Below are positions 1,263-56,170 of a DNA stretch of 64,000 bases, piece after piece (position 1 is the first letter of the stretch; each line of letters begins with the position of its first letter). Source of the DNA: Acidobacteriota bacterium (GTDB lineage: Bacteria; Acidobacteriota; Blastocatellia; RBC074). The stretch lies in the NCBI GenBank assembly GCA_019639255.1, contig JAHBSF010000006.1, positions 26,261 through 90,260 of the forward strand, written 5' to 3'. Below the pieces are notes generated by a model. The model searched no databases. It saw nothing but the letters and a program-made list of their open reading frames with translations, and was not told where the DNA came from. Both the position numbers and the translations under genes were made by a program.

Positions 1263-4043
<2,781 letters not shown>

Positions 4044-5900: not shown

Positions 5901-7265
5901 ATGGCACGCAAAAGATCGAATGCTTCCCGCAGGTTGCGCAATTCTCCCGGATCCGAGCGGTCCTACTACGAGTTTCTCGCCTCGACCCCGACGCTGCCCA
6001 TCAGCCGCACCGAACTTGTGCGCCTGATTCGCGGCGGCGAGGACACTTATCTCGAACTCAAGGTTCGCTTCAGCAATGTAGAAAAGCTGACCGCGGAAAT
6101 AATAGCCCTCGCAAACACCGGCGGCGGCGCAATAGTCTTCGGCGTTAACGATCAGTTGCGCATCGAGGGCGTCGACGATCCCGAAAGCGTCGAGTCGCAA
6201 CTGCGGGAAATCTGCTTCAGCCTCATCCAGCCGCCCGTATTTCCGTACATAAACTGCGTGGCGTTCGATAACGGCCGCCGCATAGTCGTGCTCGAAGTAT
6301 TCAACGAAGACCGTCCGCACCGCACGCTCGACGACCGATTTTATTTGCGCGAAGGGTCGTCCAAACGCGAGGCCACACGCGAGGAACTCTCACGCCTTTA
6401 CCAGGAAGCGTTTACGGGGCGCTTCGAACAACTCCCCGTGTTTCGCTCCTGGATCGAGCGCGATATTGATGAAGCTACCTTCTGGAGCTACATCCGCGGC
6501 GTCAGCCCCGGTGCGTGGGGCGAGGGTGCGCGCGGTTTTCCTACAGAACTCGTGCTCGGCGAAATGGGGCTGGCCGTGAAAATCGGCGACGAAGTGATTC
6601 CAACCATCGCGGGATTGCTGCTGTTTGGTTCAAACGAACGCGTGGCGGAGATACTGCCTCGCGCCGACTTTCTGCTGACGCGCTACAGCGGCCAGGACGC
6701 TTCTTCTCCCGTAATCGAGCAACTTCACCTTCAGGGCAACCTGCTGCGCCTGTTTGACGGAGCCCTGAGTTTCATAAAACGCTACGTAGATCTGTGGGAC
6801 GCGCGACCTTCGCGCAAATCCCTCGAAGAAAAGACACTGCAAAATTCCGGAACCGCTTCCGGTCTGAATCCGATCAACGCCCCGAATCAAACGGCCGAGT
6901 ACGCAGCAGTGCGGGGAAACTACCCTCGCGCAGCGATCATCGAAGCGCTCGTCAACTCGATCATTCATCGCGATTGGGGACCGCGCGATTGCAGGGCGCG
7001 TATCAACATCTACGACGATGCGGTCGAGTTCACGAATCCCGCCGGATCTCCGGAACTGCCCGCAGCATCGCTTCGCTACGGTATTGCTGTTCCGCCCAAT
7101 CCTCGGCTGAAATCCGTATTCACGAACCGGCATTACGGCGCGCACGCAGGTACGGGAGGCATCCCGGCGCTGCTTGCCGAGGCCTCGGCTTTCTCGCGTC
7201 GCAGTCCCGAAGGGCCAACGCTTGCAAACAATGAGTTTCGTTTGAAACTCTTCGGATGGCGATGA
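5901..7265 (+). CDS. putative transcriptional regulator with AlbA_2 (Schlafen-like DNA-binding) N-terminal domain and RecG-C-terminal-like HATPase_c_4 domain
   Basis: N-terminal YLELKVRFSN...ALANTGGGAIVFGVND (AlbA_2). C-terminal ALVNSIIHRDWGPRD (HATPase_c_4 / 'divergent AAA' family). Its 3' end overlaps the comEA start by 10 nt. Confidence 0.6.
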   Translation: MARKRSNASRRLRNSPGSERSYYEFLASTPTLPISRTELVRLIRGGEDTYLELKVRFSNVEKLTAEIIALANTGGGAIVFGVNDQLRIEGVDDPESVESQLREICFSLIQPPVFPYINCVAFDNGRRIVVLEVFNEDRPHRTLDDRFYLREGSSKREATREELSRLYQEAFTGRFEQLPVFRSWIERDIDEATFWSYIRGVSPGAWGEGARGFPTELVLGEMGLAVKIGDEVIPTIAGLLLFGSNERVAEILPRADFLLTRYSGQDASSPVIEQLHLQGNLLRLFDGALSFIKRYVDLWDARPSRKSLEEKTLQNSGTASGLNPINAPNQTAEYAAVRGNYPRAAIIEALVNSIIHRDWGPRDCRARINIYDDAVEFTNPAGSPELPAASLRYGIAVPPNPRLKSVFTNRHYGAHAGTGGIPALLAEASAFSRRSPEGPTLANNEFRLKLFGWR

Positions 7266-7573: not shown

Positions 7574-10307
7574 AGGTATTTACCTGAAGGTCATCTCCGT
7601 TGGTCGAAATCGTTATTGCGCCGCAAGCGCCCGTAGTGAGTACACGAGCGCCCGTACCCCTGATTCTCGACATCACATCCGTGTGCGGATGACCGAAAGG
7701 ACTGGGCGAGCCTGCCGAAACAACAGCGACCACGGGCTCGACGAGCGCGAGAAAATCGGGCGTCGATGAAGTGCGCGAACCGTGATGTGCAACTTTCAAT
7801 ACATCGGCGCTCAAATCCTCTCCCAAAGCTGCAAGCAGTCGCTCGCCGTGTTTCTCCAGGTCGCCCGTCAACAGAAAGCTGCGGTGACCAAATCGCAGTC
7901 GCAAAACCAGCGATCGCTCGTTGGGCGAGTTCTGCATCGGGGTTTTTCCAGGCTCCCGGTCGGCAACAGGAGCGAGTACTTCTATCGAAACCCCTTCGAT
8001 TTCAATCCGGTCTCCGCGACTCCAGCGCTCGTGCCGCACTGCTCTTCGTTCTACAACGGTATCGAACGGCGAAACCGGTTCTACCGTTGCGGATACGAGA
8101 GTTCCCAACCGAAACAGCCTTGCAAGTTCTGAAAAGCCTTCCACGTGGTCGGCGTGATTATGGCTCGCAACCGCCCAGTCTATTCGTTTTACTCCGTAAT
8201 GCCACAGAAAAGGAGCAACGGCGAGTTGTCCCGTTCCCGCGCGATCCTCTGCAAATTGAAACCCGGTTTCGTCCGCTTCTTTTATCGGAGCGCCAAACCC
8301 TGGACGGCCTCCGCTATCGACCAGCATCACGCTTCCCATTGGAAACGCAATGGCTATAGCGTCTCCCTGTCCCACATCCAGAAAAGACAGGCTCAACCTC
8401 CCGCGTTCAAACCGCGGCGAAACCGGCAAAACGAGCATAAGCCCCGAAATCAGCATCAGCGAAAGCCATGCGCCCCAGGCCTTTCGCCGCAATCCCGCGT
8501 CGTGTTTCAGATCCAGCGGATTCCACAGATCGAGCGTTGCTGCGAGCCCGATTGCCGACAATGCAAATAGAGGATAAAGAATCATCTCTGATGCAGCGTG
8601 ATCGGGCGCAAAGAGGTTTGCGTGCGAGGGCGTCGCAATCGTTTCCGCTGCGTCGAGGGCGAGTCTTCCCGTAGTGTCCAGAAGCGAAATGAGAACCGGT
8701 TCGGCTGCTGGCGCCTGAAAGTGAGCCAGCAGAAACAGTGCGCCGAGAATCATTGCGCAGATTACCAGCGCGCCTTCGGCGAGGTTGGCCGCAGGAGCGG
8801 CAAGGCTGACCCGGTGAAACAGGCGGATCGTCAACGGCAAAAGTACTATCTGCACGGTGATGGTCGTCAACATTGTAGCGGCTGCCCACCTGAGCGGGCG
8901 CTGTATACAGAGCTTTTCGGCCCACAATGCCGCCGGAGATTTCTTCAGTCGATACCTGATTGAGGATCTGCGCATCTGCTCTCTGAATCCTCTTTCGCTC
9001 CAGAACAACAGTTCGGCAATGGATCTGATCCAGGGACTAATGCGCGGAGGAAACGGAGTTCTTTCGTTCGGTTGCCATTCACCTGCGGCTTTGAAGCGCT
9101 GGAATACGGGACCGCTCACAAGCACGATCGCACCGACCGTAAGAAAGGAAAGCTGAAATGCGGGATTCAAAAGTTCGCGCGGATTGAGCGAGAGTATTAA
9201 AAGTGCTGCTGCCGCAAGTGCATTCGGTCCCTCAGATTCCCGCCAGAGCGCTCGTGCCAGGATCGCAAACGACAACATCCACGCTGCTCGCGTAACGGCA
9301 GGTTGCATTCCCACCATCACTGCATAGGCCCATACAATCGTCGTCAGAATAACGAACCTGAGCGTTCGTGAATGTGTAAGTCTTCGGATGATTGCGGCCA
9401 GCAGCACCGCTATGAGTGAAACGTGCAATCCCGAAATTACAAGCAGGTGAAATGTGCCGCCTGCGCGGAAACCCTCGCCCAATCTCCGATCGATGAAATG
9501 CCTGTTACCGAACAAAGCGGCAACGAGCAACCCTGAAGAAGGTTGCGGTATCCGCCGCAAGATAGCCGAAACCGATGAGGCGCGGATTCGGCCCAGTTGC
9601 CCGAATATTGAACTCGATCTCTTTGATAAGGTCTTTTCGATCAGAAGCGGGCTTTTTATATGCCCCACAGCATCCAGGTTACGCTCTTCCAGCCAGAGAT
9701 CGAAAGAGCGCACACCGGGATTTCGATACCCATGCGACCGGCGCAGGTAACAGTATGCCCATACGCCTTCGCCATAGTCGAGGGCCAGTCGATCATATTC
9801 ACGGCGTTCATCATCATCGGCGAATGCTACGGTGAGGCGTACCCGGCCCGAAGCTGCAAATACTCGTCCGAGTGTAGCGACCCTATCAACGCTTAAAGTC
9901 AGAAGGATTCTTTCCGGCGCCGGTTCCGGCATCTCCAACAGGCGTCCCCACAGTTCTACGGGTTCATCGGAATCAAGTTCTCCCGACTCGATCAGAGTCT
10001 TGATACTGTCGGCTTCGGCATCAATCTGCTCACAACGTGCAAGCGCTCCTCCGGCGAAAAGAAATGCGGCAAAGAGAAATGCCGATGCAGACTTTGACCT
10101 TTGCAGCAGCACTGCTCCCGCAATTGCCCAGCCGGCAAGCGCGCCTGTGATCCAGATAAATAGCGGCGCCCGCAACAGCGTGCAGGCGAGAATGCCGGTT
10201 GCGAATGAAATAGTAAGATAAAACAGAGGCTGCTTTTGCAGCGCAAGTCGTGAGAACGTCAATCGGCGAGGCATGACTCGAACTCCGGTTTGGGTTCGAG
10301 GTGGCAA
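7557..10307 (-). CDS. comEC: DNA internalization-related competence protein ComEC/Rec2
   Basis: 916 aa with a polytopic membrane region, the competence domain, and a C-terminal metallo-beta-lactamase domain (HNHADHVEG ... LKVAHHGSRTSS). Confidence 0.9.
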   Translation of the reverse strand: MPPRTQTGVRVMPRRLTFSRLALQKQPLFYLTISFATGILACTLLRAPLFIWITGALAGWAIAGAVLLQRSKSASAFLFAAFLFAGGALARCEQIDAEADSIKTLIESGELDSDEPVELWGRLLEMPEPAPERILLTLSVDRVATLGRVFAASGRVRLTVAFADDDERREYDRLALDYGEGVWAYCYLRRSHGYRNPGVRSFDLWLEERNLDAVGHIKSPLLIEKTLSKRSSSIFGQLGRIRASSVSAILRRIPQPSSGLLVAALFGNRHFIDRRLGEGFRAGGTFHLLVISGLHVSLIAVLLAAIIRRLTHSRTLRFVILTTIVWAYAVMVGMQPAVTRAAWMLSFAILARALWRESEGPNALAAAALLILSLNPRELLNPAFQLSFLTVGAIVLVSGPVFQRFKAAGEWQPNERTPFPPRISPWIRSIAELLFWSERGFREQMRRSSIRYRLKKSPAALWAEKLCIQRPLRWAAATMLTTITVQIVLLPLTIRLFHRVSLAAPAANLAEGALVICAMILGALFLLAHFQAPAAEPVLISLLDTTGRLALDAAETIATPSHANLFAPDHAASEMILYPLFALSAIGLAATLDLWNPLDLKHDAGLRRKAWGAWLSLMLISGLMLVLPVSPRFERGRLSLSFLDVGQGDAIAIAFPMGSVMLVDSGGRPGFGAPIKEADETGFQFAEDRAGTGQLAVAPFLWHYGVKRIDWAVASHNHADHVEGFSELARLFRLGTLVSATVEPVSPFDTVVERRAVRHERWSRGDRIEIEGVSIEVLAPVADREPGKTPMQNSPNERSLVLRLRFGHRSFLLTGDLEKHGERLLAALGEDLSADVLKVAHHGSRTSSTPDFLALVEPVVAVVSAGSPSPFGHPHTDVMSRIRGTGARVLTTGACGAITISTNGDDLQVNTFTKCE

Positions 10308-10378: not shown

Positions 10379-11656
10379 TCAGCGTTCTGTTTTGCGCTTC
10401 TCGAAATGCGCCACCGTTTCCAGATGAAACGTCTGCGGGAACATATCGAGAACGGTTAGCGAGCGAAGGAAATACCCTCGATCGAGTAGAATTTTCAGAT
10501 CACGCGCAAGTGTTGCGGGATCGCAAGAAACATAGCCGATGGAATCGGGTGCGATTGCTGCAATGCGTTCGATCGTAACCGCACCGGCGCCGGCTCGCGG
10601 CGGATCGAGGAGTACAAAATCCGGCCGTCCGGTTTGCGGGGCGCGGTGCTTCAGCCAGGCTTCGACCGATGTAGCTTCGTAGCGTACATTTGCGATCCCG
10701 TTTGCGCGCAGGTTTCGAACGCCATGACTTGCCGCGATGTGATTGCCTTCGACTGAATAAACCTGATCGAAGCGCCGGGCCAGTTGCAGCGTGAAGAGCC
10801 CCACGCCAGCGTAAAGATCGAGAGCAAGCCTGCCTCGCCGATCGGCAATTGCCGCATTTACAAGTTTTTCCACCAGCAGTCGATTGACCTGGAAAAAAGA
10901 CCGGACGCCGAATTCGTAATCTACGCCGGAGATACGCTGCCGCGCGGTTCCCAACGCATCGTATTGCGCCTGGCGCGCGCCGTCGCCCGTGCCCGGTGTG
11001 ACGAGTACGCCATCATCGCCCGCCGTAATATAAACCCGCGTTGCGTCTTTCGGAAGCAGCTCCTTTTCGTCGTGCAACCGTCCAAGCTCTCGGTTCGCTG
11101 CAGGAAGAAGAATCGGGCAGCTTTTTACCTCGCAGACATCGTGCGAGCCGATTCTGTAAAAACCGATTCTGGTATCGGAATCCCCGATGCGCGATATCTT
11201 TACCTCCGCGCGCGAACGATATTCAAACTCGGCTGCGGTAATGACTTCTATCTCTTCTTCATACTCGATCTTTGCAATGCGCCGCAGACTTTCGCGCAGG
11301 AACTCGCGTTTTGCCGCTATCTGCGCGGGGTAGTCGATGTGCTGCAACTGGCATCCGCCGCAATCGCCGAAATGCGGGCACGGAGGATTGCGGCGAAAAG
11401 GCGACGGAGCGATTATTTGCTCGATCTGTGCGCGTGCATAATTGCGTGCAAGATGCACTATTCGAACGCTCGCACGATCGCCCGGCGCGGCGAGCGGTAC
11501 AAATACGGCGTGCGTTCCAATCCGAGCCAATCCGTCTCCGCCGTATACAAGCTTCTCTATGGTCGCTTCGTAGACGCGTCCAACTTCTATGTCCCGGTTC
11601 TCTGTCGAACCGGAGGCATTGGATTCAGTATCTGCCGCTTCTTCACAAGTCGACAT
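10379..11656 (-). CDS. rlmD: 23S rRNA (uracil-5)-methyltransferase RlmD/RumA family (TRAM + [4Fe-4S] + SAM MTase)
   Basis: N-terminal TRAM-like region, Cys cluster CPHFGDCGGCQLQH plus a downstream Cys, and C-terminal class I SAM MTase (LDLYAGVGLF, VLLDPPRAG). Confidence 0.85.
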   Translation of the reverse strand: MSTCEEAADTESNASGSTENRDIEVGRVYEATIEKLVYGGDGLARIGTHAVFVPLAAPGDRASVRIVHLARNYARAQIEQIIAPSPFRRNPPCPHFGDCGGCQLQHIDYPAQIAAKREFLRESLRRIAKIEYEEEIEVITAAEFEYRSRAEVKISRIGDSDTRIGFYRIGSHDVCEVKSCPILLPAANRELGRLHDEKELLPKDATRVYITAGDDGVLVTPGTGDGARQAQYDALGTARQRISGVDYEFGVRSFFQVNRLLVEKLVNAAIADRRGRLALDLYAGVGLFTLQLARRFDQVYSVEGNHIAASHGVRNLRANGIANVRYEATSVEAWLKHRAPQTGRPDFVLLDPPRAGAGAVTIERIAAIAPDSIGYVSCDPATLARDLKILLDRGYFLRSLTVLDMFPQTFHLETVAHFEKRKTER

Positions 11657-13338: not shown

Positions 13339-14085
13339 TCAATCCTCGTTTTCGCGCAACCGCACAACCTCGCCCGAAATCACTGTACGGATCTCGCCCG
13401 CCGGCGTACGCAACTGCAGGGCTCCCGATGCATCGAGTCCGCAGGTTTCGCCCGCCAAATCGCCGGAATCGGTCAGGATGCGCACGAGCTTGCCGGTCGC
13501 ATAGCTCGATAGTTCGCAGTAACGGGCAATGATCGCCCGTCCGCCGCAGTTGCGCCATACGTCGTACCAGCGCGCGAACCGATCTAGCAGCGCATCGCGA
13601 ATCGCATCCACCGGAGTTGAACGTTCAGTAATCAGTGCAAGCGAGGTCGCAGTATCGGCAAGATCATCCGGAAACGATCGCTGATTGATGTTCACCCCGA
13701 TTCCAACTATGAGTCGCAGCCCGGTTGCGCCCGCTGATGCGCCTTCGATAAGAACGCCGCTGATTTTCTTTCCGCAAGCGAGCACATCATTGGGCCATTT
13801 GATGTCGATGCCCGCAGCACCGAATTCCATCAGTGTTTCGGCGACTGTTATACCTGTAAGGAGGCTGATGAGCGGAACGGATTCAGGTTGAGCGGTAGGC
13901 CGAAGCAAAACCGACATATACAAACCGTCGCCCGGGGCCGAATGCCAGCTTCTATCGCGGCGCCCGCGTCCGGCGGTTTGATCGGCGGCCGTAATGACGG
14001 TGAACTCATCGGCATTGACCCAGGCCTTCAATTCGTCGTTGGTCGACTTGATCGTTTCAAAGTGGTGTATGACGAAGCGGTGCAT
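13339..14085 (-). CDS. birA: biotin--[acetyl-CoA-carboxylase] ligase (catalytic domain only, no HTH)
   Basis: TAADQTAGRGRRDRSWHSAPGDGLYMSVLLRP (the GRGRxGRxW biotin ligase motif). About 248 aa. Adjacent to coaX, a common pairing. Confidence 0.85.
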   Translation of the reverse strand: MHRFVIHHFETIKSTNDELKAWVNADEFTVITAADQTAGRGRRDRSWHSAPGDGLYMSVLLRPTAQPESVPLISLLTGITVAETLMEFGAAGIDIKWPNDVLACGKKISGVLIEGASAGATGLRLIVGIGVNINQRSFPDDLADTATSLALITERSTPVDAIRDALLDRFARWYDVWRNCGGRAIIARYCELSSYATGKLVRILTDSGDLAGETCGLDASGALQLRTPAGEIRTVISGEVVRLRENED

Positions 14086-14090
14086 AAAAT

Positions 14091-14447
14091 AGAGAATAAC
14101 GGAACGGAGGGAATAAATACTCTGTAAACAAAGTGTTTGAGTTTTTCAGCCGCGGAGCGGCGAAAGATCTGTAGCCCAGGGCGTAAGCCCTGGGTAGGTG
14201 TAGAGAAGCGGCGCCAGCCCCGGAGGGGCGGAAGATCTTTCGCCCCTCCGGGGCTCTGACGTTTTTCGCCTGCTGACCTGGCGCTCACGCACCAGGCTAC
14301 AGATCTTTCGCCGCTCCGCGGCTGAAAAACTCAAACACTTTGTTTACAGAGTAATAAACGGAACAAACGGAAAGCAATTCCCTGTTTTCTTTCCGTTTGT
14401 TCCGTTTATTCCGTCTGTTCCGTTATTCTCTCTTTTATGACGGGCGG
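14091..14447. repeat. family-A element A3, split by insertion of family-B element B1
   Basis: Left arm AGAGAATAACGGAACGGAGGGAATAAA (14091-14117) and the remainder ATAAACGGAACAAACGGAAAG...CTTTCCGTTTGTTCCGTTTATTCCGTCTGTTCCGTTATTCTCTC plus tail (14354-14447). ATAAA is duplicated on both sides of B1. The tail supplies the last codons and stop of nadC. Confidence 0.8.
14118..14353. mobile_element. family-B non-autonomous palindromic element B1 (~236 bp) nested in A3
   Basis: Termini TACTCTGTAAACAAAGTGTTTGAGTTTTTCAGCCGCGGAGCGGCGAAAGATCTGTAGCC... and their inverse ...GGCTACAGATCTTTCGCCGCTCCGCGGCTGAAAAACTCAAACACTTTGTTTACAGAGTA. The ~120-bp internal segment is inverted relative to copy B2. Flanked by ATAAA/ATAAA. 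Confidence 0.85.
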
Positions 14448-15301
14448 ATTTTAAAGCTGATGTCAACGGCCGGAGCGGAATGCGTAATGGCGCCTATCGA
14501 GATCAAATCGACGCCCGCTTCGGCGTATGCACGGACGTTTTCGAGCGTTATTCCGCCGGAGGATTCTATAAGGGTCCGCCGTTCTTCGGGTTCAGCCGCG
14601 CGTACTATTTCGACGGCCTGACGGGTCAGGTCCGGGCTCATGTTGTCGAGCATTACGATATCGACTTTCGCCCGAAGCGCCTCGCGCAACTGATCGAGCG
14701 TTGCTACTTCGACTTCGATCTTGTGAAGGTGGCCTACTACTTCGCGCACCCTCCGTACGGCTTCCGCAACGCCGCCCCCGAGCGCGAGATGATTGTCCTT
14801 GATCAGAACACCGTCATCGAGTCCCAGTCGGTGATTGCGTCCGCCTCCGGCGGTGACAGCGTACTTTTCAAGAAGGCGAAGGCCCGGCTTTGTCTTTCGC
14901 GTATCCACGATTACGGCTGAGGTGCCTGCGATCGCATCTACGTATTTTCGTGTTGCGGTTGCGATGCCTGAAAGGTGCTGTAGGAAATTCAGGGCGACGC
15001 GCTCCGATGCAAGCAGCGTCTGCGCGTCGCCCGTTACGCGAGCAAACGCTTTGCCGGCTTTTACCAAATCCCCGTCGCCGGCGGCGCTTTCGATCTGAAG
15101 GTGGTAGTCGAAGGCGCTGAAGGCGGCGTCAGCGACTTCGAGGCCGGCCAGCACCAGATCCTGCTTGGCCAGAAAACTCCCGCGTGCGCGTTGTCCGGGG
15201 CGGACTATTGCCCGAGATGTAATATCGCCGCGTCCTATGTCTTCGTCCAGCGCCGCGTTGACGGCTTCGAAAATCGTTTCGGGGTCGAGTGGAATGATCA
15301 T
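14435..15301 (-). CDS. nadC: nicotinate-nucleotide pyrophosphorylase (quinolinate phosphoribosyltransferase)
   Basis: 288 aa with typical NadC N-terminus (LDEDIGRGDITS) and the MLDNMSP / GGI motifs. The C-terminal codons and stop lie in the A3 tail. Confidence 0.9.
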   Translation of the reverse strand: MIIPLDPETIFEAVNAALDEDIGRGDITSRAIVRPGQRARGSFLAKQDLVLAGLEVADAAFSAFDYHLQIESAAGDGDLVKAGKAFARVTGDAQTLLASERVALNFLQHLSGIATATRKYVDAIAGTSAVIVDTRKTKPGLRLLEKYAVTAGGGRNHRLGLDDGVLIKDNHLALGGGVAEAVRRVREVVGHLHKIEVEVATLDQLREALRAKVDIVMLDNMSPDLTRQAVEIVRAAEPEERRTLIESSGGITLENVRAYAEAGVDLISIGAITHSAPAVDISFKIRPS

Positions 15302-18875: not shown

Positions 18876-18955
18876 CGTCAGACTCCAACGGCCCTGCAAT
18901 TTTTATCAGTCCATAGCAGACCATAACAGACTGGTACACACAACGAGGTCCGCAA

Positions 18956-19025
18956 CTGGGTACGCACGCGCCCTCGCGTGCGTTCGGCGGCGAATGAAAG
19001 CACGCGAGGGCGCGTGCGTACCCAG
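18956..19025. repeat. family-C GC-rich hairpin repeat, copy C1
   Basis: CTGGGTACGCACGCGCCCTCGCGTGCGTTCGGCGGCGAATGAAAGCACGCGAGGGCGCGTGCGTACCCAG. About 24-bp GC stem with an 18-nt loop and no U-tract. Near-identical copy at 51465-51534 with related extended flanks. Confidence 0.85.
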
Positions 19026-21476: not shown

Positions 21477-21573
21477 ATTGACGGTCAACGGAACATACGA
21501 AACAAAACGGAAATTACCGAAATGTTGAATATTTCCGGCTACTTCCATAATTTCCGTCTATTTTCGTTTGTTC
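21477..21573. repeat. family-A element A5
   Basis: ...GGTCAACGGAACATACGAAACAAAACGGAAATTACCGAAATGTTGAATATTTCCGGCTACTTCCATAATTTCCGTCTATTTTCGTTTGTTCCGTCATCTCT. Contains the conserved centre TTGAATATTTCCG. Confidence 0.8.
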
Positions 21574-24820: not shown

Positions 24821-26281
24821 ATGACCGAACCGCCGCTTCAGGGCGCTGAAATCATCGCCGCTCGCGCTGTGAAGGAATTTTTTCGCAATCTTTCAGAAGG
24901 CCGGTTTGCCCGCAATCAGGCGGCAGAACTTCTGGAACTGACTGCGGACCCGGAATCCGCGCAAATCGGGCTTCGCGCCCTTTTTGCGGATCTGATCGAA
25001 CGGCTCAACGATTCGTTCGATCCCGGATTGTGCGCCGTGCACGATAAGCTCCTCGCACAGATGATCGAGTTCTATCGCCGCCGTCCCGAATGCGCATTGC
25101 TCGATGCAACGCTCGATTCGTTTGGACTGCGCGATGAACACGATTTGCTCGCACGCAGAAATTCTCTGGGTTCGAAATGTAATCCCCTCGAATTTGAGCG
25201 AATACAACGAGTGCTCGCGTTGTCCCGCGTCACTATCGGCGCCGATGTAGCGGTCACAAGCGTGATAATAAACCAGTTGAACCGGGCCGTCCCCGGCGCT
25301 GAAATCGTATGGATCGGGCCGCATAAACTCGCCGAACTTTATGGCGGAGATCCCGGAATCAGGTTGCGTCCACTCGATTATGCGCGCACGGGCCGGGTCG
25401 TTGACAGATTGAACGCCTGGCTCGGCCTTCTGGATGCTATAAGGGATGAAATGCGAGGCTTTGACCCTGCCCAAGTGCTGATTGTAGACCCCGATTCGAG
25501 GTTGACGCAGCTCGGGATGCTGCCCGTAACCTCTGAGGATAGAAACTATCACTTCTTTGAAAGCCGCAGTTATCGCGCGCAGGGAAGCGATGCGCTTGGA
25601 GAGCTTGCGGCGCAATGGAGCGAGGAAAGATTTCCGGCAACCGGACGGGAACATGCTCCATCCCCGTCTCCGTTTCTCTGCCTGCCCGATCATATGGCGC
25701 AGTCGGGAGCCGAAAACCTAAGGCGGTTTCGTTCGGGCAGGAGCCATCCCGTCACCTGCGTCAGTTTCGGCGTCGGAGGAAACGATCTCAAACGCGTTTC
25801 CGAAGAGTTTGAACTGGAGTTGCTCGCGCGGTTGGCAATGAACTCATTGCTGATACTCGACAGCGGCGCATCCCCGCAGGAGATCGCATCAACAGATCGT
25901 ATTGTCGGGCGGCTTCGAGAAACGGGCAGGATCGTTGCTGTTGGAACAGAGCACGCACAAATGCCCCTGGATATCGACCTCGCCGAAGTGTTGGTCTGGC
26001 GCGGCGGCATCGGATCTCTTGCCGCGATTGTGCGGGCCTCCGACATATATGTCGGTTACGATTCGGCGGGTCAGCACATAGCTGCGGCTTTCGGCGTTGC
26101 GTCACTAACAGTATTTGTCAATAACGCAACACCGAAGTTTGCCGCGCGATGGCGACCTACGGGGCACGGGGCAATCGAGGTGCTGGAACTTTCTCGCCGG
26201 GATGCCGACTCCGTGCGCGCCTCCGATCTGGCTGACGAAGTGTTGCGCATAAGAAAAAAGAGAGATAACGGAACAAACTAA
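24821..26281 (+). CDS. glycosyltransferase family 9 (heptosyltransferase-like) protein
   Basis: C-terminal YVGYDSAGQHIAAAFGVASLTVF matches the GT9 motif (GNDSGPMHLAAALG-P-V-LFG). About 487 aa. The last 6 codons (RDNGTN) and the stop are encoded by repeat A6. Confidence 0.6.
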   Translation: MTEPPLQGAEIIAARAVKEFFRNLSEGRFARNQAAELLELTADPESAQIGLRALFADLIERLNDSFDPGLCAVHDKLLAQMIEFYRRRPECALLDATLDSFGLRDEHDLLARRNSLGSKCNPLEFERIQRVLALSRVTIGADVAVTSVIINQLNRAVPGAEIVWIGPHKLAELYGGDPGIRLRPLDYARTGRVVDRLNAWLGLLDAIRDEMRGFDPAQVLIVDPDSRLTQLGMLPVTSEDRNYHFFESRSYRAQGSDALGELAAQWSEERFPATGREHAPSPSPFLCLPDHMAQSGAENLRRFRSGRSHPVTCVSFGVGGNDLKRVSEEFELELLARLAMNSLLILDSGASPQEIASTDRIVGRLRETGRIVAVGTEHAQMPLDIDLAEVLVWRGGIGSLAAIVRASDIYVGYDSAGQHIAAAFGVASLTVFVNNATPKFAARWRPTGHGAIEVLELSRRDADSVRASDLADEVLRIRKKRDNGTN

Positions 26282-26394
26282 ATAAGACGAAACAGACGGA
26301 AAGGTTGAATATTTCCGTCTGTTTCGTCTTATTTAGTTTGTTCCGTTATCTCTATTCTTTCAGCGAATTTCGAGGTTTCTACTGGAATTCGACC
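26260..26394. repeat. family-A element A6 (core plus tail) spanning the convergent stops of two genes
   Basis: GAGAGATAACGGAACAAACTAAATAAGACGAAACAGACGGAAAGGTTGAATATTTCCGTCTGTTTCGTCTTATTTAGTTTGTTCCGTTATCTCT followed by the tail ...TTCTACTGGAATTCGACC. The GT9 stop (plus strand) and the propeller-protein stop (minus strand) both lie inside it. Confidence 0.85.
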
Positions 26395-30943: not shown

Positions 30944-33631
30944 ATGACGGGAAACGAAATAAGAACCAGATTCCTCGAATACTTTGCGCGTCACGGCCAC
31001 AAGATCGTGAAATCCTCATCGCTGCTGCCGGCGGGCGACGCTACGCTGCTTTTTACAAACGCCGGCATGAACCAGTTCAAGGACGTATTTCTCGGGGCCG
31101 AAACCCGCGACTACAAACGCGCGACAACCTCGCAAAAATGCGTGCGCGCCGGGGGCAAACACAACGATCTCGATGAAGTAGGCAAAACCGCACGGCATCA
31201 TACTTTTTTCGAGATGCTCGGCAACTTCTCGTTCGGGGACTATTTCAAGGCCGACGCCGTAAGATTCGCCTGGGATCTGCTCGTAAACGAACTGAAAATG
31301 GACCCTCGCCGATTGTGGTTTACAGTCTTTGCCGGCGACGACGAGGTTCCGCCCGATGAAGAGGCCGAGATGTTGTGGGCCGCCGTCGGCGCGCCGCGCG
31401 ACCGCATACTGCGCTTCTCGCGCAAGGACAACTTCTGGCAGATGGGCGAAACCGGGCCGTGCGGCCCGTGCTCGGAAATCCATTATTATCTGGGCGAAAA
31501 CCCCGATGATCCGGAATCGAACAGGCGCGAATTCGTCAACGGCCCCGGCGACGAAACGATCGAGATCTGGAATCTCGTTTTCATGCAGTACAACCGCCAG
31601 GCCGAGGGCGAAGGCGATGCTTTAACCTACAAACTCGATCCGCTCCCCGCTCCTTCAGTCGATACGGGCGCGGGCCTCGAACGCGTTACGGCCGTACTTC
31701 AGGGCGTAAAATCCAACTATGAAACGGATCTGATCCGCCCAATCATAGACTTTACGGCGCAACTCGCCGGTCGCACATATGTCTACGATGACACCGAAGA
31801 CAGCGTATCGATGCGAGTAATTGCGGATCACGCGCGCGCCACGGCGTTTCTGATTGCCGACGGCGTTTTCCCCGGCAACGACAGGCGCGGGTACGTTTTG
31901 CGCAAGATTATGCGGCGCGCCATATGGCACGGCAATCGTCTCGGATTCAGGGATCTGTTTTTCCACCGCGCGACGGATTTCGTCGTGGATCTTATGGGAG
32001 ATGCGTACCCGGAATTGAAGGAATCCCGTTCCGTGATTTCGCGCGTAGTGACTATAGAAGAAAAACTTTATTCTTCGACCGTCGCGGCGGGCCTGCACCT
32101 GCTCGATCAGGTTATGGAAAAGGCAGGCGATGGCCGCATCGTTGCGGGCGCCGATGTATTCAAACTTTACGATACTTACGGATTGCGCTACGACCTTATA
32201 GAGTACGTAGCCTCGCAGCGCGGCTTTGCGCTTGATGGTGAAGGGTTCGAGGCCGAGCTTGAAGGGCAGCGCCGGCGCGCGCGAGAAAGCTGGAAGGGCG
32301 GCGCGGCCAAACAGGTCAATCCCGTTTATCAATCGATTGCCGAGCGAGGCAAATCCGAATTCACCGGATACGGCGGCACCGAGCTACGCGCGGCTGCCGT
32401 AACTGCGATCATTCGTGACGGCGAATTGGTCAGGGAACTGCGCGCCGGACAATCGGGCGAACTCATCCTCGACAGGACTCCGTTTTACGCCGAGTCCGGC
32501 GGACAGGTTGGGGATACGGGCATCGTAGAAACCGACGATGCACGCGCGCTTGTTACCGATACACAATCGCCGGTATCGGGCCTGATCGTGCACAAGGTAG
32601 AGGTCGAACTCGGAAAAGTACGGGTCGGGGATGAAGTCAGGGCTCGGGTGGATGCCGAAAAGCGCGCTGCCACGATGGCAAACCACACCGCGACGCATTT
32701 GCTGCACGCCGCGCTGCGCGAGGTGCTGGGGCCTCACGTCAAACAGGCCGGGTCGCTCGTAGCACCCGACAGATTGCGATTCGACTTCACGCATTTCGCG
32801 CCATTGACCGAAAGCGAAATCGAGGTCATCGAGCGCATGGTGAATGAAGAGATACTGAAAAACTCTCAGGTATCCAAAAACGTAATGGGTCTCGATGACG
32901 CCGTAGCATCGGGCGCGATGGCGCTTTTCGGCGAAAAATACAGCGAACAGGTGCGCGTGGTGAGCGTGCCGGGATTTTCCACCGAACTGTGCGGCGGAAC
33001 GCACGTCAACGCTACGGGCGATATCGGCGTGCTGAAGATCGTATCCGATCAGTCGATAGCATCGGGCACGCGGCGCATTGAAGCCGTAACGGGGCGCGGG
33101 GCATATGAAAGATTCCAGCGCTCGGAGCAGCTTCTGGGCGCTGCCGCATCGCGGCTCAACACGAGCCCCGCGAAGTTGCCCGAAGAAGTCGAGCGGTTGC
33201 AGGCTGCGCTTCGCGAGCATCAGCGAGAAATAGAGCGCCTCAAGCTGAAGCTTGCGCAGGGCGCTGCATCGCTTGCGGATGAAAAAACCGTGGAAATAGA
33301 CGGCCTGAAAGTGCTTGTGCGAAAGGCCGATAACCTGGGGCGCGACGGGCGCAGGCAGCTTGCCGATTCGCTTTCGCGGCGCATAGCGCCGGGCGTAGTC
33401 GTGCTCGGCGAGGCCGGAGAGGGTGCGGCATCTGTGCTGGTTATGGTATCGCGCGAGGCTACGGCGAAGATCCAGGCGGGACGCATAATAAAGGAACTTA
33501 TGGCAATAAGCGGCGGGCGCGGAGGAGGCAAGCCGGAACTTGCCGAGGGCGGTTCGCCGCCTGAAAAACTCGACGAGACGCTTGCGGCCGCGCCGCAGAT
33601 CATCGAGCGGCTGCTGAATCAGGGCGTTTGA
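30944..33631 (+). CDS. alaS: alanine--tRNA ligase
   Basis: From Met24 of track ORF 30875..33631: MTGNEIRTRFLEYFARHGH... with the class II core, an editing domain (HTATHLLHAAL, GGTHV zinc-binding) and a C-terminal DHHA1 domain. Confidence 0.95.
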   Translation: MTGNEIRTRFLEYFARHGHKIVKSSSLLPAGDATLLFTNAGMNQFKDVFLGAETRDYKRATTSQKCVRAGGKHNDLDEVGKTARHHTFFEMLGNFSFGDYFKADAVRFAWDLLVNELKMDPRRLWFTVFAGDDEVPPDEEAEMLWAAVGAPRDRILRFSRKDNFWQMGETGPCGPCSEIHYYLGENPDDPESNRREFVNGPGDETIEIWNLVFMQYNRQAEGEGDALTYKLDPLPAPSVDTGAGLERVTAVLQGVKSNYETDLIRPIIDFTAQLAGRTYVYDDTEDSVSMRVIADHARATAFLIADGVFPGNDRRGYVLRKIMRRAIWHGNRLGFRDLFFHRATDFVVDLMGDAYPELKESRSVISRVVTIEEKLYSSTVAAGLHLLDQVMEKAGDGRIVAGADVFKLYDTYGLRYDLIEYVASQRGFALDGEGFEAELEGQRRRARESWKGGAAKQVNPVYQSIAERGKSEFTGYGGTELRAAAVTAIIRDGELVRELRAGQSGELILDRTPFYAESGGQVGDTGIVETDDARALVTDTQSPVSGLIVHKVEVELGKVRVGDEVRARVDAEKRAATMANHTATHLLHAALREVLGPHVKQAGSLVAPDRLRFDFTHFAPLTESEIEVIERMVNEEILKNSQVSKNVMGLDDAVASGAMALFGEKYSEQVRVVSVPGFSTELCGGTHVNATGDIGVLKIVSDQSIASGTRRIEAVTGRGAYERFQRSEQLLGAAASRLNTSPAKLPEEVERLQAALREHQREIERLKLKLAQGAASLADEKTVEIDGLKVLVRKADNLGRDGRRQLADSLSRRIAPGVVVLGEAGEGAASVLVMVSREATAKIQAGRIIKELMAISGGRGGGKPELAEGGSPPEKLDETLAAAPQIIERLLNQGV

Positions 33632-33650
33632 CTTTGGGAAGCGACGGCAG

Positions 33651-33769
33651 GAGAGAGATAACAGAACAAACGAAATGAAACGAAAATTACTGACAGAGCA
33701 AATATTTCAGTCTGTTCCGTCTATTTTCGTTTGTTTAGTTATCTACAGTGGTTTCGATTTTGGTGTTAA
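33651..33769. repeat. family-A element A8 (core plus tail), its palindromic tail interrupted by B2
   Basis: GAGAGAGATAACAGAACAAACGAAATGAAACGAAAATTACTGACAGAGCAAATATTTCAGTCTGTTCCGTCTATTTTCGTTTGTTTAGTTATCT, then tail ACAGTGGTTTCGATTTTGGTGTTAA. The inverted partner of the tail resumes at 33998-34025 (CTTAACACCAAAATCCAAACCGCTGTA). Confidence 0.8.
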
Positions 33770-33997
33770 GTACTCTGTAAACAAAGTTTTTGAGTTTTCA
33801 GCCGCGGAGCGGCGAAAGATCTGTAGCCTGGTGCGTGAGCGCCAGGTCAGCAGAAAAAGAACGTTTGAGCCCTGAAAGGGCGAAAGATCTTCCGCCCCTC
33901 CGGGGCTGGTACGGCTTCTCTACACTCACCCAGGGCTCGCCGCCCTGGGCTACAGATCTTTCGCCGCTCCGCGGCTGAAAAACTCAAAAACTTTGTT
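33770..33997. mobile_element. family-B element B2 (~228 bp), inserted at the TTAA centre of a palindrome
   Basis: Same ~57-bp terminal inverted repeats as B1. The internal ~120 bp is the reverse complement of the B1 interior. Flanked by TTAA (33766-69) and TTAA (33998-34001). Confidence 0.85.
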
Positions 33998-34066
33998 TAC
34001 AGAGTACTTAACACCAAAATCCAAACCGCTGTAATATCCCGACTGTGTGTGGTTTTGATTGGTTGA

Positions 34067-35170
34067 ATGAATAGTCTGATTGCATCGAATCTGGGGCATC
34101 ATCCGGGCCGCACCGCAGCGAGCGTTATCGGTGTAGCTGTGGGTGTTGTGCTCGTGGTGATGACGGTGGGGCTGGTTCGCGGGGCGCTGCGCGATCGCGG
34201 GCAGCGCGATGCCAACATCGGCGTCGAAATCATGGTCACCGGGCAGGGGCAGGGCATTTCTATCGCCTCTTCCGACCTTACGCTGCCCGTAGAGCTTGCA
34301 GGAAAAATAGCTGCTATTCCGGGAGTCGCGGCTGCGACGCCTGTAGGGCAGAATCTGGAACTCAAGGGCGACAACGGCATTGGGATTCGGCAAATCGACG
34401 GCATCGACTACGCGAGTTTTACCGCCGCAGGCAAGCTACGCGTGGAACAGGGAGAGCCGCTGCCCGAAAAGGGCGATGTTGCGATCATCGACTTCAAGTA
34501 TGCTGCGGACAAGAAACTCAAGATCGGCGACCGCATCGAGGGGTTCGACCGTGAGTTTACGATAATCGGCATATATGCTCCCGAAGCGGGGCCGCGCATC
34601 AAGGTGCCGCTGAAAACCATGCAGGAGGCGCTCGGCGTCGACGGCAAATGTTCGATGATTTACGTCAAATGCGTCGACGCTGCCGAACAGGAAGCCATAG
34701 CGCAGCGGATTATCGCGGATTACCCCGATTTGCGCATTATATTTACTCGCGATTTGCCCGAACTTTACGCAACGGGTTACGCGGGATTCAACGTTTTTCT
34801 GAACATAATCGCCGGGCTTGCGACGGTCATAAGCCTGCTCGTCATACTGCTTACGATGTACACGACCGTGACCGAAAGAACGCGCCAGATCGGGATAATG
34901 AAATCGCTCGGCGCCTCCCGGTCGTTCATCGCAGGAGTTTTTGTTCGCGAGGCCTTGACGATCTCGATTATCGGGGTTGGGGCAGGCCTCGTCGTATCGC
35001 TTGCAGCGCGGGCGATACTCGTAGGTGCGCTCGACTGGAGAGTCCAGATCGAGCCCGGATATGTCGCCTATGCCGCTCTAGCCGGCATTGCCAGCGGCAT
35101 CATAGGCGCGCTTTACCCCGCGCTGCGCGCCGCTTCTCAGGATCCGATAGACGCTCTCAGTTATGAGTAA
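34067..35170 (+). CDS. ABC transporter permease, FtsX/MacB/LolCE-like
   Basis: N-terminal TM, a large periplasmic loop, and 3 C-terminal TMs with the FtsX-like motif (..MKSLGASRSFIAGVFVREAL..). No ATPase gene adjacent. Confidence 0.8.
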   Translation: MNSLIASNLGHHPGRTAASVIGVAVGVVLVVMTVGLVRGALRDRGQRDANIGVEIMVTGQGQGISIASSDLTLPVELAGKIAAIPGVAAATPVGQNLELKGDNGIGIRQIDGIDYASFTAAGKLRVEQGEPLPEKGDVAIIDFKYAADKKLKIGDRIEGFDREFTIIGIYAPEAGPRIKVPLKTMQEALGVDGKCSMIYVKCVDAAEQEAIAQRIIADYPDLRIIFTRDLPELYATGYAGFNVFLNIIAGLATVISLLVILLTMYTTVTERTRQIGIMKSLGASRSFIAGVFVREALTISIIGVGAGLVVSLAARAILVGALDWRVQIEPGYVAYAALAGIASGIIGALYPALRAASQDPIDALSYE

Positions 35171-37149: not shown

Positions 37150-37157
37150 AACAGGCG

Positions 37158-37320
37158 ATGCGGAAATTTGGTACGAAGCGGAAGACAGCCAGAGAGATAA
37201 CGGAACAAACGAAATGAAACGGAACAAACGAAAATATTCAACTTTTCCGTAATTTTCGGTTCCTTTCGTTTGTTCCGTTATCTCTCTTTTACGCCCCGAT
37301 GTCATGTGGTTTGATTTAAC
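37158..37320. repeat. family-A element A9 (full length with both tails)
   Basis: Left tail ...AAATTTGGTACGAAGCGGAAGACAGCCA, core GAGAGATAACGGAACAAACGAAATGAAACGGAACAAACGAAAATATTCAACTTTTCCGTAATTTTCGGTTCCTTTCGTTTGTTCCGTTATCTCTC, right tail TTTTACGCCCCGATGTCATGTGGTTTGATTTAACGG. The ftsY ATG follows 20 nt later. Confidence 0.85.
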
Positions 37321-50511: not shown

Positions 50512-50523
50512 ACCTGGTTTAAT

Positions 50524-50686
50524 CGATCCACATCAGATTGGTACAAAGCGTGATAAAGCAAGAGAGATGACGGAACAAACGAAATGAAACGAAAATTACG
50601 GAAAATTTGAATATTTTTGTAGTTTCCGTCTTATTTCGTTTGTTTCGTCATCTCTCTTCGAAGTCGTGTGGAGTGATTCAATCGAG
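50524..50686. repeat. family-A element A12 (full length with both tails)
   Basis: ...CACATCAGATTGGTACAAAGCGTGATAAAGCAA, core GAGAGATGACGGAACAAACGAAATGAAACGAAAATTACGGAAAATTTGAATATTTTTGTAGTTTCCGTCTTATTTCGTTTGTTTCGTCATCTCTC, then TTCGAAGTCGTGTGGAGTGATTCAATCGAGC. Followed by TAAGGAG and the ATG at 50703. Confidence 0.85.
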
Positions 50687-51449: not shown

Positions 51450-51464
51450 AACGCCCTAAACCGA

Positions 51465-51534
51465 ACTGGGTACGCACGCGCCCTCGCGTGCGTTCGGCTG
51501 AGAATGAAAGCACGCGAGGGCGCGTGCGTACCCA
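51465..51534. repeat. family-C GC-rich hairpin repeat, copy C2
   Basis: CTGGGTACGCACGCGCCCTCGCGTGCGTTCGGCTGAGAATGAAAGCACGCGAGGGCGCGTGCGTACCCAG. The right flank (GTTGCGGACTCCGTAGTGTGTACCA...TGTGGATTGATTTAG) is the inverted counterpart of the C1 left flank. Confidence 0.85.
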
Positions 51535-51658
51535 GTTGCGGACTCCGTAGTGTGTACCATTCTGCTGTGGATTGATTTAGGGTTTGATCCGTTATCTCAC
51601 TTCTACTGATTCCTTCGGGGAGGTATTTCTGGCGCACCAGAGTGCACAATCTGAAAGC

Positions 51659-55620: not shown

Positions 55621-56055
55621 ATGACTGTAGTCGCTGAAAAAAGTCGGAAACCGATCAGAGAAGGGTTGTTTGCGGAAGATGCGAACGGCGTGAGTCTGAT
55701 CGGCGGGCGGTGTCGGGAATGCGCTGAAATCGTATTCCCCGCCAATCCCTTTTGCCCGCGGTGCTGTCGCGAGACGACCGAACCCGTTGCACTCTCTCGG
55801 CGCGGAGTGCTTTACAGCTTCACCGTGCAGCGTTTCAAACCGCCGCCGCCATATCGCGGACCCGATCCTTTCGTCCCGTACGGCGTAGGTCTGATAGAAC
55901 TGCCCGAGGGGCTGCGCATAACTTCGGTGCTCAAGGCGGAACCGGACGACCTTCGCGTCGGGATGGAAATGGAGCTAGTGGTCGAGGGGTTTTTCGAGGA
56001 CGAGGACGGCAACGAAATACTGGGCTACAAGTTTCGCCCGGTGGAAGAGAGATAA
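55621..56055 (+). CDS. DUF35 Zn-ribbon + OB-fold protein (thiolase partner; ChsH2-C-term/IpfE-like)
   Basis: GRCRECAEIVFPANPFCPRCC (rubredoxin-like Zn ribbon) followed by an OB-fold segment. The last codons and stop (...EER*) are encoded by repeat A13. Confidence 0.75.
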   Translation: MTVVAEKSRKPIREGLFAEDANGVSLIGGRCRECAEIVFPANPFCPRCCRETTEPVALSRRGVLYSFTVQRFKPPPPYRGPDPFVPYGVGLIELPEGLRITSVLKAEPDDLRVGMEMELVVEGFFEDEDGNEILGYKFRPVEER

Positions 56056-56170
56056 CGGAACAAACTAAATAAGTCGGAAACTACGAAAATATTCAACTTT
56101 TCCGTGATTTTTGTTTCATTTCGTTTGTTTCGTTATCTCTTATGCCCCAGTGACGAGCAGAGTGATTTAG
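56047..56170. repeat. family-A element A13 (core plus right tail)
   Basis: GAGAGATAACGGAACAAACTAAATAAGTCGGAAACTACGAAAATATTCAACTTTTCCGTGATTTTTGTTTCATTTCGTTTGTTTCGTTATCTCT, then TATGCCCCAGTGACGAGCAGAGTGATTTAG abutting the ATG at 56171. Confidence 0.85.

Follow-up and report, generated by a model that had tools for sequence, protein, structure and literature searches.

What is a 236-bp palindromic element doing inside another palindromic repeat, and what brought it there? This question is raised by the intergenic space between nadC and birA in a 64-kb stretch of contig JAHBSF010000006.1 from an Acidobacteriota bacterium (hereafter the window), where a repeat that we call A3, a member of the abundant palindromic family A, is interrupted by an element that we call B1. 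A second copy, B2, lies elsewhere in the window. Our analysis indicates that B is a new composite miniature element residing in an abundant palindromic repeat, and that the case is otherwise one of ordinary mobile-element biology. As to its movement, we give a probability of roughly 60% to the explanation that B is a non-autonomous element of the MITE type (miniature, transposable and with inverted repeats), mobilized in trans by a transposase of the DDE type whose cuts are staggered by 5 bp.

B1 spans 14118–14353 on the plus strand, starting with TACTCTGTAAAC and ending with GTTTACAGAGTA. Its terminal inverted repeats are perfect over 59 nt and continue to 78 nt at 91% identity, and the folding energy of its single strand is −116.6 kcal/mol (z = −22.7). 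ATAAA borders it directly on both sides, at 14113–14117 and again at 14354–14358. At 14091–14117 it is preceded by the outer stretch of A3's left arm (AGAGAATAACGGAACGGAGGGAATAAA); the remainder of A3, comprising the inner left arm, the loop and the whole right arm, follows at 14354–14431. When B1 is taken out together with one ATAAA, 14091–14117 pairs with 14405–14431 and A3 becomes a continuous 42-bp stem with a single internal mismatch region (−46.8 kcal/mol). Deleting B1 alone leaves a 5-nt bulge (−43.2 kcal/mol), and keeping a single TA, as an IS630-type model would have it, leaves one of 7 nt (−42.8 kcal/mol). The nested insertion of B1 and its 5-bp flanking repeat are thus real. A prediction made earlier from the sequence of this stretch, referred to below as the original prediction, had described B1 as a mobile inverted-repeat element of 236 bp set in A3 between two copies of ATAAA. 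All of this was borne out, with the inverted repeats measuring slightly more than the 57 bp first given.

B2 occupies 33771–34006 on the minus strand and is likewise 236 bp long. That B has only these two copies in the window, as had been claimed, was confirmed, and all inferences on B draw on this pair. B1 is 91.6% identical to the reverse complement of B2 over the full length and 80.8% identical to its forward strand, so it is the whole element that is reversed, not its interior as had been proposed. The terminal inverted repeats of B2 are perfect over 28 nt. Position 18 of the arms is G in B1 and T in B2, and each copy carries its variant in both arms.

The surroundings of B2 turned out to be more complex than those of B1. 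Its junctions read GTTAAG|TACTCTG...CAGAGTA|CTTAAC, and centred exactly on it is C, an inverted duplication of 27 nt that has no other copy in the window, with the left arm (TACAGTGGTTTCGATTTTGGTGTTAAG) at 33744–33770 on the plus strand and the right arm at 34007–34033 on the minus strand (2 mismatches). Together C and B2 form a 290-bp unit, TACAG...CTGTA, flanked by TTATC (33739–33743) and ATATC (34034–34038), a match of 4/5 (4/4 for TATC) that is expected by chance at 1.4–2.7% per site. On the left lies the palindrome of another family-A copy, A8 (33648–33743). Its native tail module, recognized by comparing all A-family ends (GTGTGGTTTTGATTGG...), is on the plus strand at 34046–34066, directly before an ATG at 34067. 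The C arms resemble A-family tail modules moderately (p 0.01–0.07); taking them for the native A8 tail was rejected, given this moderate similarity and the position of the true tail further to the right. This places the C+B2 unit in the linker that separates the A8 arm from the A8 tail. B2 is inside an extended A8, and in that respect the original prediction stands, with its coordinates of 33770–33997 corrected. What had been read as the TTAA centre of the A8 tail is the C duplication. A TTAA target duplication at B2 does not hold up either: to arrive at TTAA|..|TTAA, B2 must be extended by one G and one C not present in B1, with TTAA 1 nt off the ends that B2 shares with B1, and a 4-bp TTAA would be inconsistent with the 5-bp ATAAA.

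Both insertions were checked against an independent short-read assembly (Logan SRR12908343), whose contigs match the window at 99.9–100% identity. The A3|B1 junction was recovered in its contig L005 and the right junction of B2 in its contig L007, whose start coincides with the point of divergence of the two C arms; this would be expected if the reads contain both arms. The recurrence of the junctions in independent assemblies, together with the 2 positions that distinguish the C arms, rules out an assembly artefact.

A filled and an empty insertion site came from a comparison of strains. Contig JAHCHF010000006.1 of GCA_026129895.1 is only 99.1–99.7% identical to the window, which makes GCA_026129895.1 a sister strain of the window organism. 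The comparison comprised four sister-strain loci (L001, L006, L033 and L035) that cover most of the window; divergence from them is 0.3–0.9%, plus one 182-bp indel, and the window is not the contig deposited for GCA_026129895.1. The sole large difference across the four loci is an element of 177 bp, which we call E, at 3605–3781 of L001. It lies inside the family-A copy A5, beside its loop, with perfect 19-bp terminal repeats (CTCGACTTTGTCCATTTTT) and a fold of z = −6.8. TCGGT stands on both sides of E in the sister strain. The window has a single copy of this pentamer in A5, ACCGA on the plus strand at 21516–21520, and no element. E is therefore a 5-bp target duplication verified by an empty site and polymorphic between strains about 0.5% apart, and its presence in one strain and absence from the other is direct evidence of recent transposition. 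It follows that in this organism inverted-repeat elements that make 5-bp duplications insert into A elements. The filled and empty pair documents present-day activity of miniature transposons in a lineage of uncultured Acidobacteriota, where they pile up in a very abundant repeat family. E was found nowhere else in the sequence data examined.

B itself has a longer history. Both strains carry B1 and B2, in identical form, and only one carries E, so the B insertions are older than E. The original prediction had called the transposition of B recent; this is not supported for two copies that differ from each other by 8.4% and that the two strains share unchanged. The regions around them (14060–14479 and 33600–34100) are identical between the strains despite the 0.3–0.9% difference elsewhere; these are short stretches and the identity may be chance. 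An empty site is thus available for E, in A5 of the window. The empty A3 and A8 sites that the original prediction had proposed to look for did not turn up: contigs traced through exact matches to the proteins of the neighbouring genes were all either broken at the repeats or filled in the same way. One contig of a more distant relative (L036, JGI 3300054704; 6170–6460 and 10868–11013) keeps the gene order and has A elements at the same sites with very different arms. Downstream of nadC, A3 is reduced in it to the final ~19 nt, after which come two GC-rich hairpins of unrelated sequence and a different gene; as an empty B1 site it was rejected, the region there being rearranged.

The internal organization of B is that of a hairpin dimer framed by outer arms. 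In B1 the arms are at 14118–14147 (left, TACTCTGTAAACAAAGTGTTTGAGTTTTTC, plus strand) and 14324–14353 (right, minus strand). Between them, two matches to the Rfam family Acido-Lenti-1 (RF01687; gathering score 37 bits) face each other, one at 14148–14194 on the minus strand (46.9 bits) and one at 14277–14323 on the plus strand (37.4 bits). B2 has a further match at 33800–33846 on the minus strand (37.4 bits), so that 3/4 motif copies of B1 and B2 pass the gathering threshold. Read on the other strand, the motif consists of GTAG, a hairpin with an 8-bp stem, a 10-nt linker and a hairpin with a 5-bp stem. In the left copy of B1, GTAG is at 14171–14174 and the 8-bp-stem hairpin at 14175–14194, with the small hairpin beside them; in the right copy the hairpin (14277–14296) is followed by CTAC (14297–14300), and its stem covaries with that of the left copy. 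The two hairpins, which resemble the hairpins of REPs (repetitive extragenic palindromes), are arranged head-to-head with the GTAG tags outward and an 81-bp structured spacer between them. Inside this spacer a perfect palindrome around AGATCT (14216–14255) is made up of two facing half motifs.

B has no coding capacity: in its 236 bp the sole internal open frame has no real homologues. A search with the pseudo-protein of that frame returned one sequence among 5.8 billion clusters, itself another copy of the hairpin dimer. This copy (L029, JGI 3300044699, 10009–10205) is a 197-bp inverted Acido-Lenti-1 dimer with the same 29-nt ends (44.9 and 43.1 bits), situated between the ABC permease and ATPase genes of a transporter operon, with one end 12 nt before an ATG. 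It has the same head-to-head arrangement, which is also that of B2. All six hairpins of B1, B2 and L029 have GTAG adjoining an 8-bp stem with a 4–5-nt loop; across the six, three stem pairs show compensatory change and 97.5% of positions are paired. The L029 dimer is without the TACTCTGTAAAC arms, and only about 10/12 nt beside its right end resemble the inner arm. Since the core occurs there without arms, B is a composite of outer arms and a hairpin-dimer core.

The outer arms, 30 nt long and starting with TAC, were used to look for relatives and for a partner transposase. The exact 23-base arm sequence had no match in 185,579 species genomes, and viral scans gave nothing useful. A metagenome scan gave one match, L004, where 22/22 nt of the B2 arm variant (21/22 of the B1 variant) form the tip of a 178-bp TA-flanked inverted-repeat element. 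A degenerate genome scan added 17 matches; three of them (L011, L012 and L024) belong to the same family of miniature elements, with these 22 nt as terminal repeat, and the rest look random. L024, from a Parachlamydiales metagenome-assembled genome (MAG), is a complete element with TA on both sides; L011 and L012 come from another MAG. In L004 the miniature element (1153–1353) lies just past an IS630-family transposase (NCBIfam NF033545) and abuts the right end of that insertion sequence (IS), with one TA in common. Relatives of the L004 transposase indicate that the IS carries ends of its own, TA|GTACATGACGATTAAAG..., and this transposase was rejected as the partner: the ends differ and the two elements merely abut. 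What is left is a similarity of ends, about 18–19/26 nt by eye between the miniature elements and IS630-family elements, and judging by it the B arms appear to be related to IS630-type ends. They are 3 nt shorter at the tip, lacking the GTG or GTA found between TA and CTCTG in the related elements.

What, then, would have moved B? We favor a DDE-type transposase encoded elsewhere in the genome, which would move the 236-bp unit whole, recognizing its terminal arms and cutting the target with a 5-bp stagger to give 5-bp target duplications. B1 landed in the left arm of A3 between nadC and birA, with duplication of ATAAA. An empty nadC–birA site would then be expected to read GGAATAAACGG, and the alternative allele GGAATAAATAATAAACGG would be contrary to a 5-bp duplication. 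That A elements are hit repeatedly probably reflects their share of about a third of the intergenic DNA, their AT-richness and their tolerance of insertions. Several observations point this way. B has the terminal inverted repeats (59 nt in B1, 28 nt in B2) and the small, non-coding make-up of a MITE. B1 and B2 correspond over 236 bp including the arms, at 91.6% identity and with unrelated flanks, which argues that the moved unit includes the arms. Long inverted termini together with 5-bp duplications of variable sequence, in turn, suggest a DDE-type transposase with a 5-bp stagger. Also in favor are the filled and empty A5 pair, the 4/5 repeat around C+B2, the homology of the outer arm to the terminal repeats of a real family of TA-flanked miniature elements, and the recovery of both junctions in independent assemblies. 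For such a transposase gene, candidate ends would be TACTCTGTAAACAAAG, TACAGTGGTTTCG and CTCGACTTTGTCC.

Some results weigh against this explanation. The flanking repeat is 5/5 for B1 and 4/5 for C+B2, and there is no 5-bp direct repeat at B2's own ends; the empty-site-verified 5 bp belong only to the unrelated E. Reading 5 bp at B2 would require that C+B2 went in as a unit, or that the flank was duplicated in inverted form afterwards. The termini of E and B are unrelated, so E informs on the lineage and not on the mover of B. No transposase with matching ends was found in the window, the sister-strain loci or the scanned collections. Neither B nor Acido-Lenti-1 recurs in 18.7 kb of extra flank, though further A copies do; this flank, ~9 kb past each window end, was taken from a 99.4–99.6%-identical sister-strain contig standing in for the window's own flanks. 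Part of B may spread by another route, the core being arm-free in L029. Finally, the arms are IS630-like and both B copies have TA at their tips, and IS630 elements duplicate TA only.

The last point leads to an alternative in which B is an IS630/Tc1-mariner-type miniature element, CTCTG...CAGAG, with TA as a 2-bp duplication and ATAAA pre-existing or present by chance; B2 would then have entered the central TA of a GTTAAG-TA-CTTAAC palindrome. We consider this unlikely, for all that speaks in its favor: both B copies and C begin and end with TA, the arm matches in L004, L024, L011 and L012 are to the terminal repeat of a TA-flanked element, that repeat resembles the ends of IS630-family elements whose transposases are confirmed by NF033545, and in L004 the two kinds of element meet at a shared TA. 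Bacterial MITEs are moreover typically TA-tipped, and IS630-Spn1 is the presumed mover of RUP (PMC2229807). Such an origin would, however, leave the 7-nt bulge in A3. It would also need an ATAAA-TA-ATAAA site, and perfect 5-nt repeats around TA occur at 0/218 intergenic TA sites and at 1/2020 TA sites window-wide. The TATC repeat around C+B2 would become a second coincidence, and B is without the three terminal nucleotides of the related elements. The L004 IS630, having different ends, is not a partner, and neither the window nor any of the lineage's loci contains an IS630 transposase.

In another alternative the palindromes themselves are the key. B, or its core, would be a REPIN-like REP doublet moved as a single strand by a tyrosine (HUH) transposase of the RAYT or TIRYT type, with the concentric palindromes (core, arms and C) arising from insertion at hairpin tips. 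The literature links GTAG REP dimers to RAYTs and describes palindrome-enclosed dimers and an Acidobacteria-specific TIRYT group (PMC3733652). The six GTAG-tagged 8-bp stems set head-to-head around the structured 81-bp spacer in B1, their compensatory pairs, and the arm-free dimer in L029 fit this picture, as does the finding of no empty outer-arm palindrome in the window. To our knowledge, Y1/HUH transposition leaves no target duplication, and here there is a clean one of 5 bp at B1. B1 is moreover located mid-arm in A3 and not at a hairpin tip, and the arms are common to B1 and B2 and so moved with the core. The first base of the tag is variable in the Rfam seed, so GTAG is not conserved family-wide. 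In the part of the genome covered here, no gene for a RAYT was seen; around a Y1/HUH gene, the hairpin type expected would be GTAGCCCAGGGC. For B as a whole we regard this route as improbable. For the spread of the hairpin-dimer core alone, a RAYT or TIRYT transposase is plausible.

The enzymes named in the original prediction, IS200/IS605 TnpA, IS110-family and piggyBac-like transposases, were considered as well. PiggyBac duplicates TTAA; B1 is flanked by ATAAA and the TTAA at B2 is 1 nt off the shared ends, so a piggyBac-like enzyme was rejected. IS200/IS605 and IS110 elements have subterminal hairpins or asymmetric ends and not long terminal inverted repeats, and we know of no 5-bp duplications of variable sequence made by IS200/IS605 TnpA or IS110-family recombinases. 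B, whose terminal inverted repeats run to 59 nt and whose flanking repeat is 5 bp, does not match this, and these were rejected too. The proposal retains some merit in that the core is a GTAG REP dimer of the RAYT-associated kind, RAYTs being relatives of IS200/IS605 TnpA.

Very improbable is a functional small RNA locus with repeats due to gene duplication: three Rfam hits at the gathering score, a covarying hairpin stem and the discoverers' rating of Acido-Lenti-1 as a probable non-coding RNA (PMC2864571) stand against a motif that occurs on both strands in mirror symmetry within a 59-nt perfect DNA palindrome, between-copy changes mirrored in both arms, a search in and around B1 that revealed neither a sigma-70-like promoter nor an intrinsic terminator, inverted termini and a flanking duplication as hallmarks of a transposon, and an Rfam seed that is repeat-like, multi-copy and often in regular tandem arrays. 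The two are not exclusive, as a mobile repeat can also be transcribed. On the context of the motif, its discoverers noted no more than an occasional closeness to group II introns. In host (an Acidobacteriota bacterium) and in score the B motif copies agree with RF01687, yet they differ from the family as described (Weinberg et al. 2010, PMC2864571): instead of standing alone as an RNA gene, the motif here clearly belongs to repeat DNA that is mobile and symmetric, with inverted termini and a target duplication. Acido-Lenti-1, for which Rfam has had no function since 2010, thereby gains a DNA context as a hairpin module within palindromic repeats that move, and small RNA gene annotations based on it may label pieces of transposons.

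Compared with known systems, B shares with the MITEs Correia/NEMIS, RUP and ERIC (PMC2229807) its length (100–250 bp), its non-coding and intergenic nature, inverted termini, TA tips, target duplication, long stable hairpin folds and presumed movement in trans. It differs from them in being GC-rich (57%), in an apparent 5-bp duplication rather than TA, in the REP-type dimer core and in having no known partner IS. With GTAG REP dimers and REPINs, among them the dimers surrounded by long palindromes, GTAG-15 of Anabaena variabilis and CGTC-1 of Halothiobacillus neapolitanus (PMC3733652, PMC3116915), it has in common GTAG beside a 6–13-bp stem, the head-to-head arrangement, a structured spacer within 20–100 bp, unlike partner stems and enclosing palindromic arms of ~30 nt that are never found empty. 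GTAG REP dimers have been described as head-to-head, as heterodimers with different stems and structured conserved spacers, and with enclosing palindromes of 27–41 nt that were never found empty (PMC3733652). Unlike them, B1 has a clean target duplication, B has arms like the end of a DDE transposon, and no RAYT was seen with it.

The remaining question is why the insertions are all in A elements. About 17 copies of family A are present in the 64 kb (e.g., 1102–1260, 26236–26363, 37151–37317, 50521–50680 and 56023–56170), as palindromes of 100–120 nt built from 9–10-nt ACGRAAC subrepeats with the ends AAGAGAGATAACGG...CCGTTATCTCTCTT. Tail modules (..GTGGATTGATTT..) are conserved 15–40 nt outside each arm, and several half copies abut gene starts. 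Excluding B1 and C+B2, the A elements total ~1.9 kb, or ~31% of the intergenic DNA, which makes up 10.5% of the window. Their GC content is 41%, against ~57% for the window, and TA occurs 5.0 times per 100 nt against 3.2 window-wide. All three insertions are in A elements (p ~0.03 against uniform intergenic insertion), at different positions, namely mid-arm (B1), next to the loop (E) and in the arm–tail linker (C+B2), and with different flanking pentamers, ATAAA, TCGGT and TTATC/ATATC. A preference for A elements is allowed by these data, which are suggestive; tolerance of insertions in AT-rich selfish DNA explains the pattern equally well, and hairpin-directed targeting is unproven. Where the original prediction had mobile elements insert into A elements and leave short duplications, B1 and E bear it out; its preference for hairpin DNA, with three different positions and p ~0.03, is not supported.

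Landing in or beside dyad symmetry or repeated palindromes is also seen in YPAL/RU-2 of Yersinia and in the REP-targeting IS1397, ISKpn1 and IS621/IS110 (PMC2229807, PMC1525189), and RUP prefers to land in other mobile elements (PMC2229807). The former have either a defined target position (loop or core) or variable duplications of 3–26 bp, whereas the three insertions here differ in position and show a weak preference. It is a doubtful proposition that A palindromes are sites actively selected by several unrelated miniature elements (B, C+B2 and E), all with 5-bp duplications, as a "safe-harbour" targeting system in Acidobacteriota directed by structure or sequence. Acido-Lenti-1 would in that case be a DNA substrate of transposition (a hairpin dimer of the REP type), and the concentric palindromes around B2 would arise from insertion into the centres of palindromes.

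As for the setting of the B1 locus, nadC (14435–15301, stop codon at 14435–14437) and birA (13339–14085) are both on the minus strand. The pile-ups of A elements with inserted elements are the exact break points of short-read assemblies. A third palindrome family was also observed, with two copies of 72 nt at 18954–19025 and 51464–51535 that are 97% identical and have a GC-rich 24-bp stem. It is absent from L036 at the same locus. In the window each copy lies between an A arm and a tail module, and the two have ~25 nt of one-sided flank in common.

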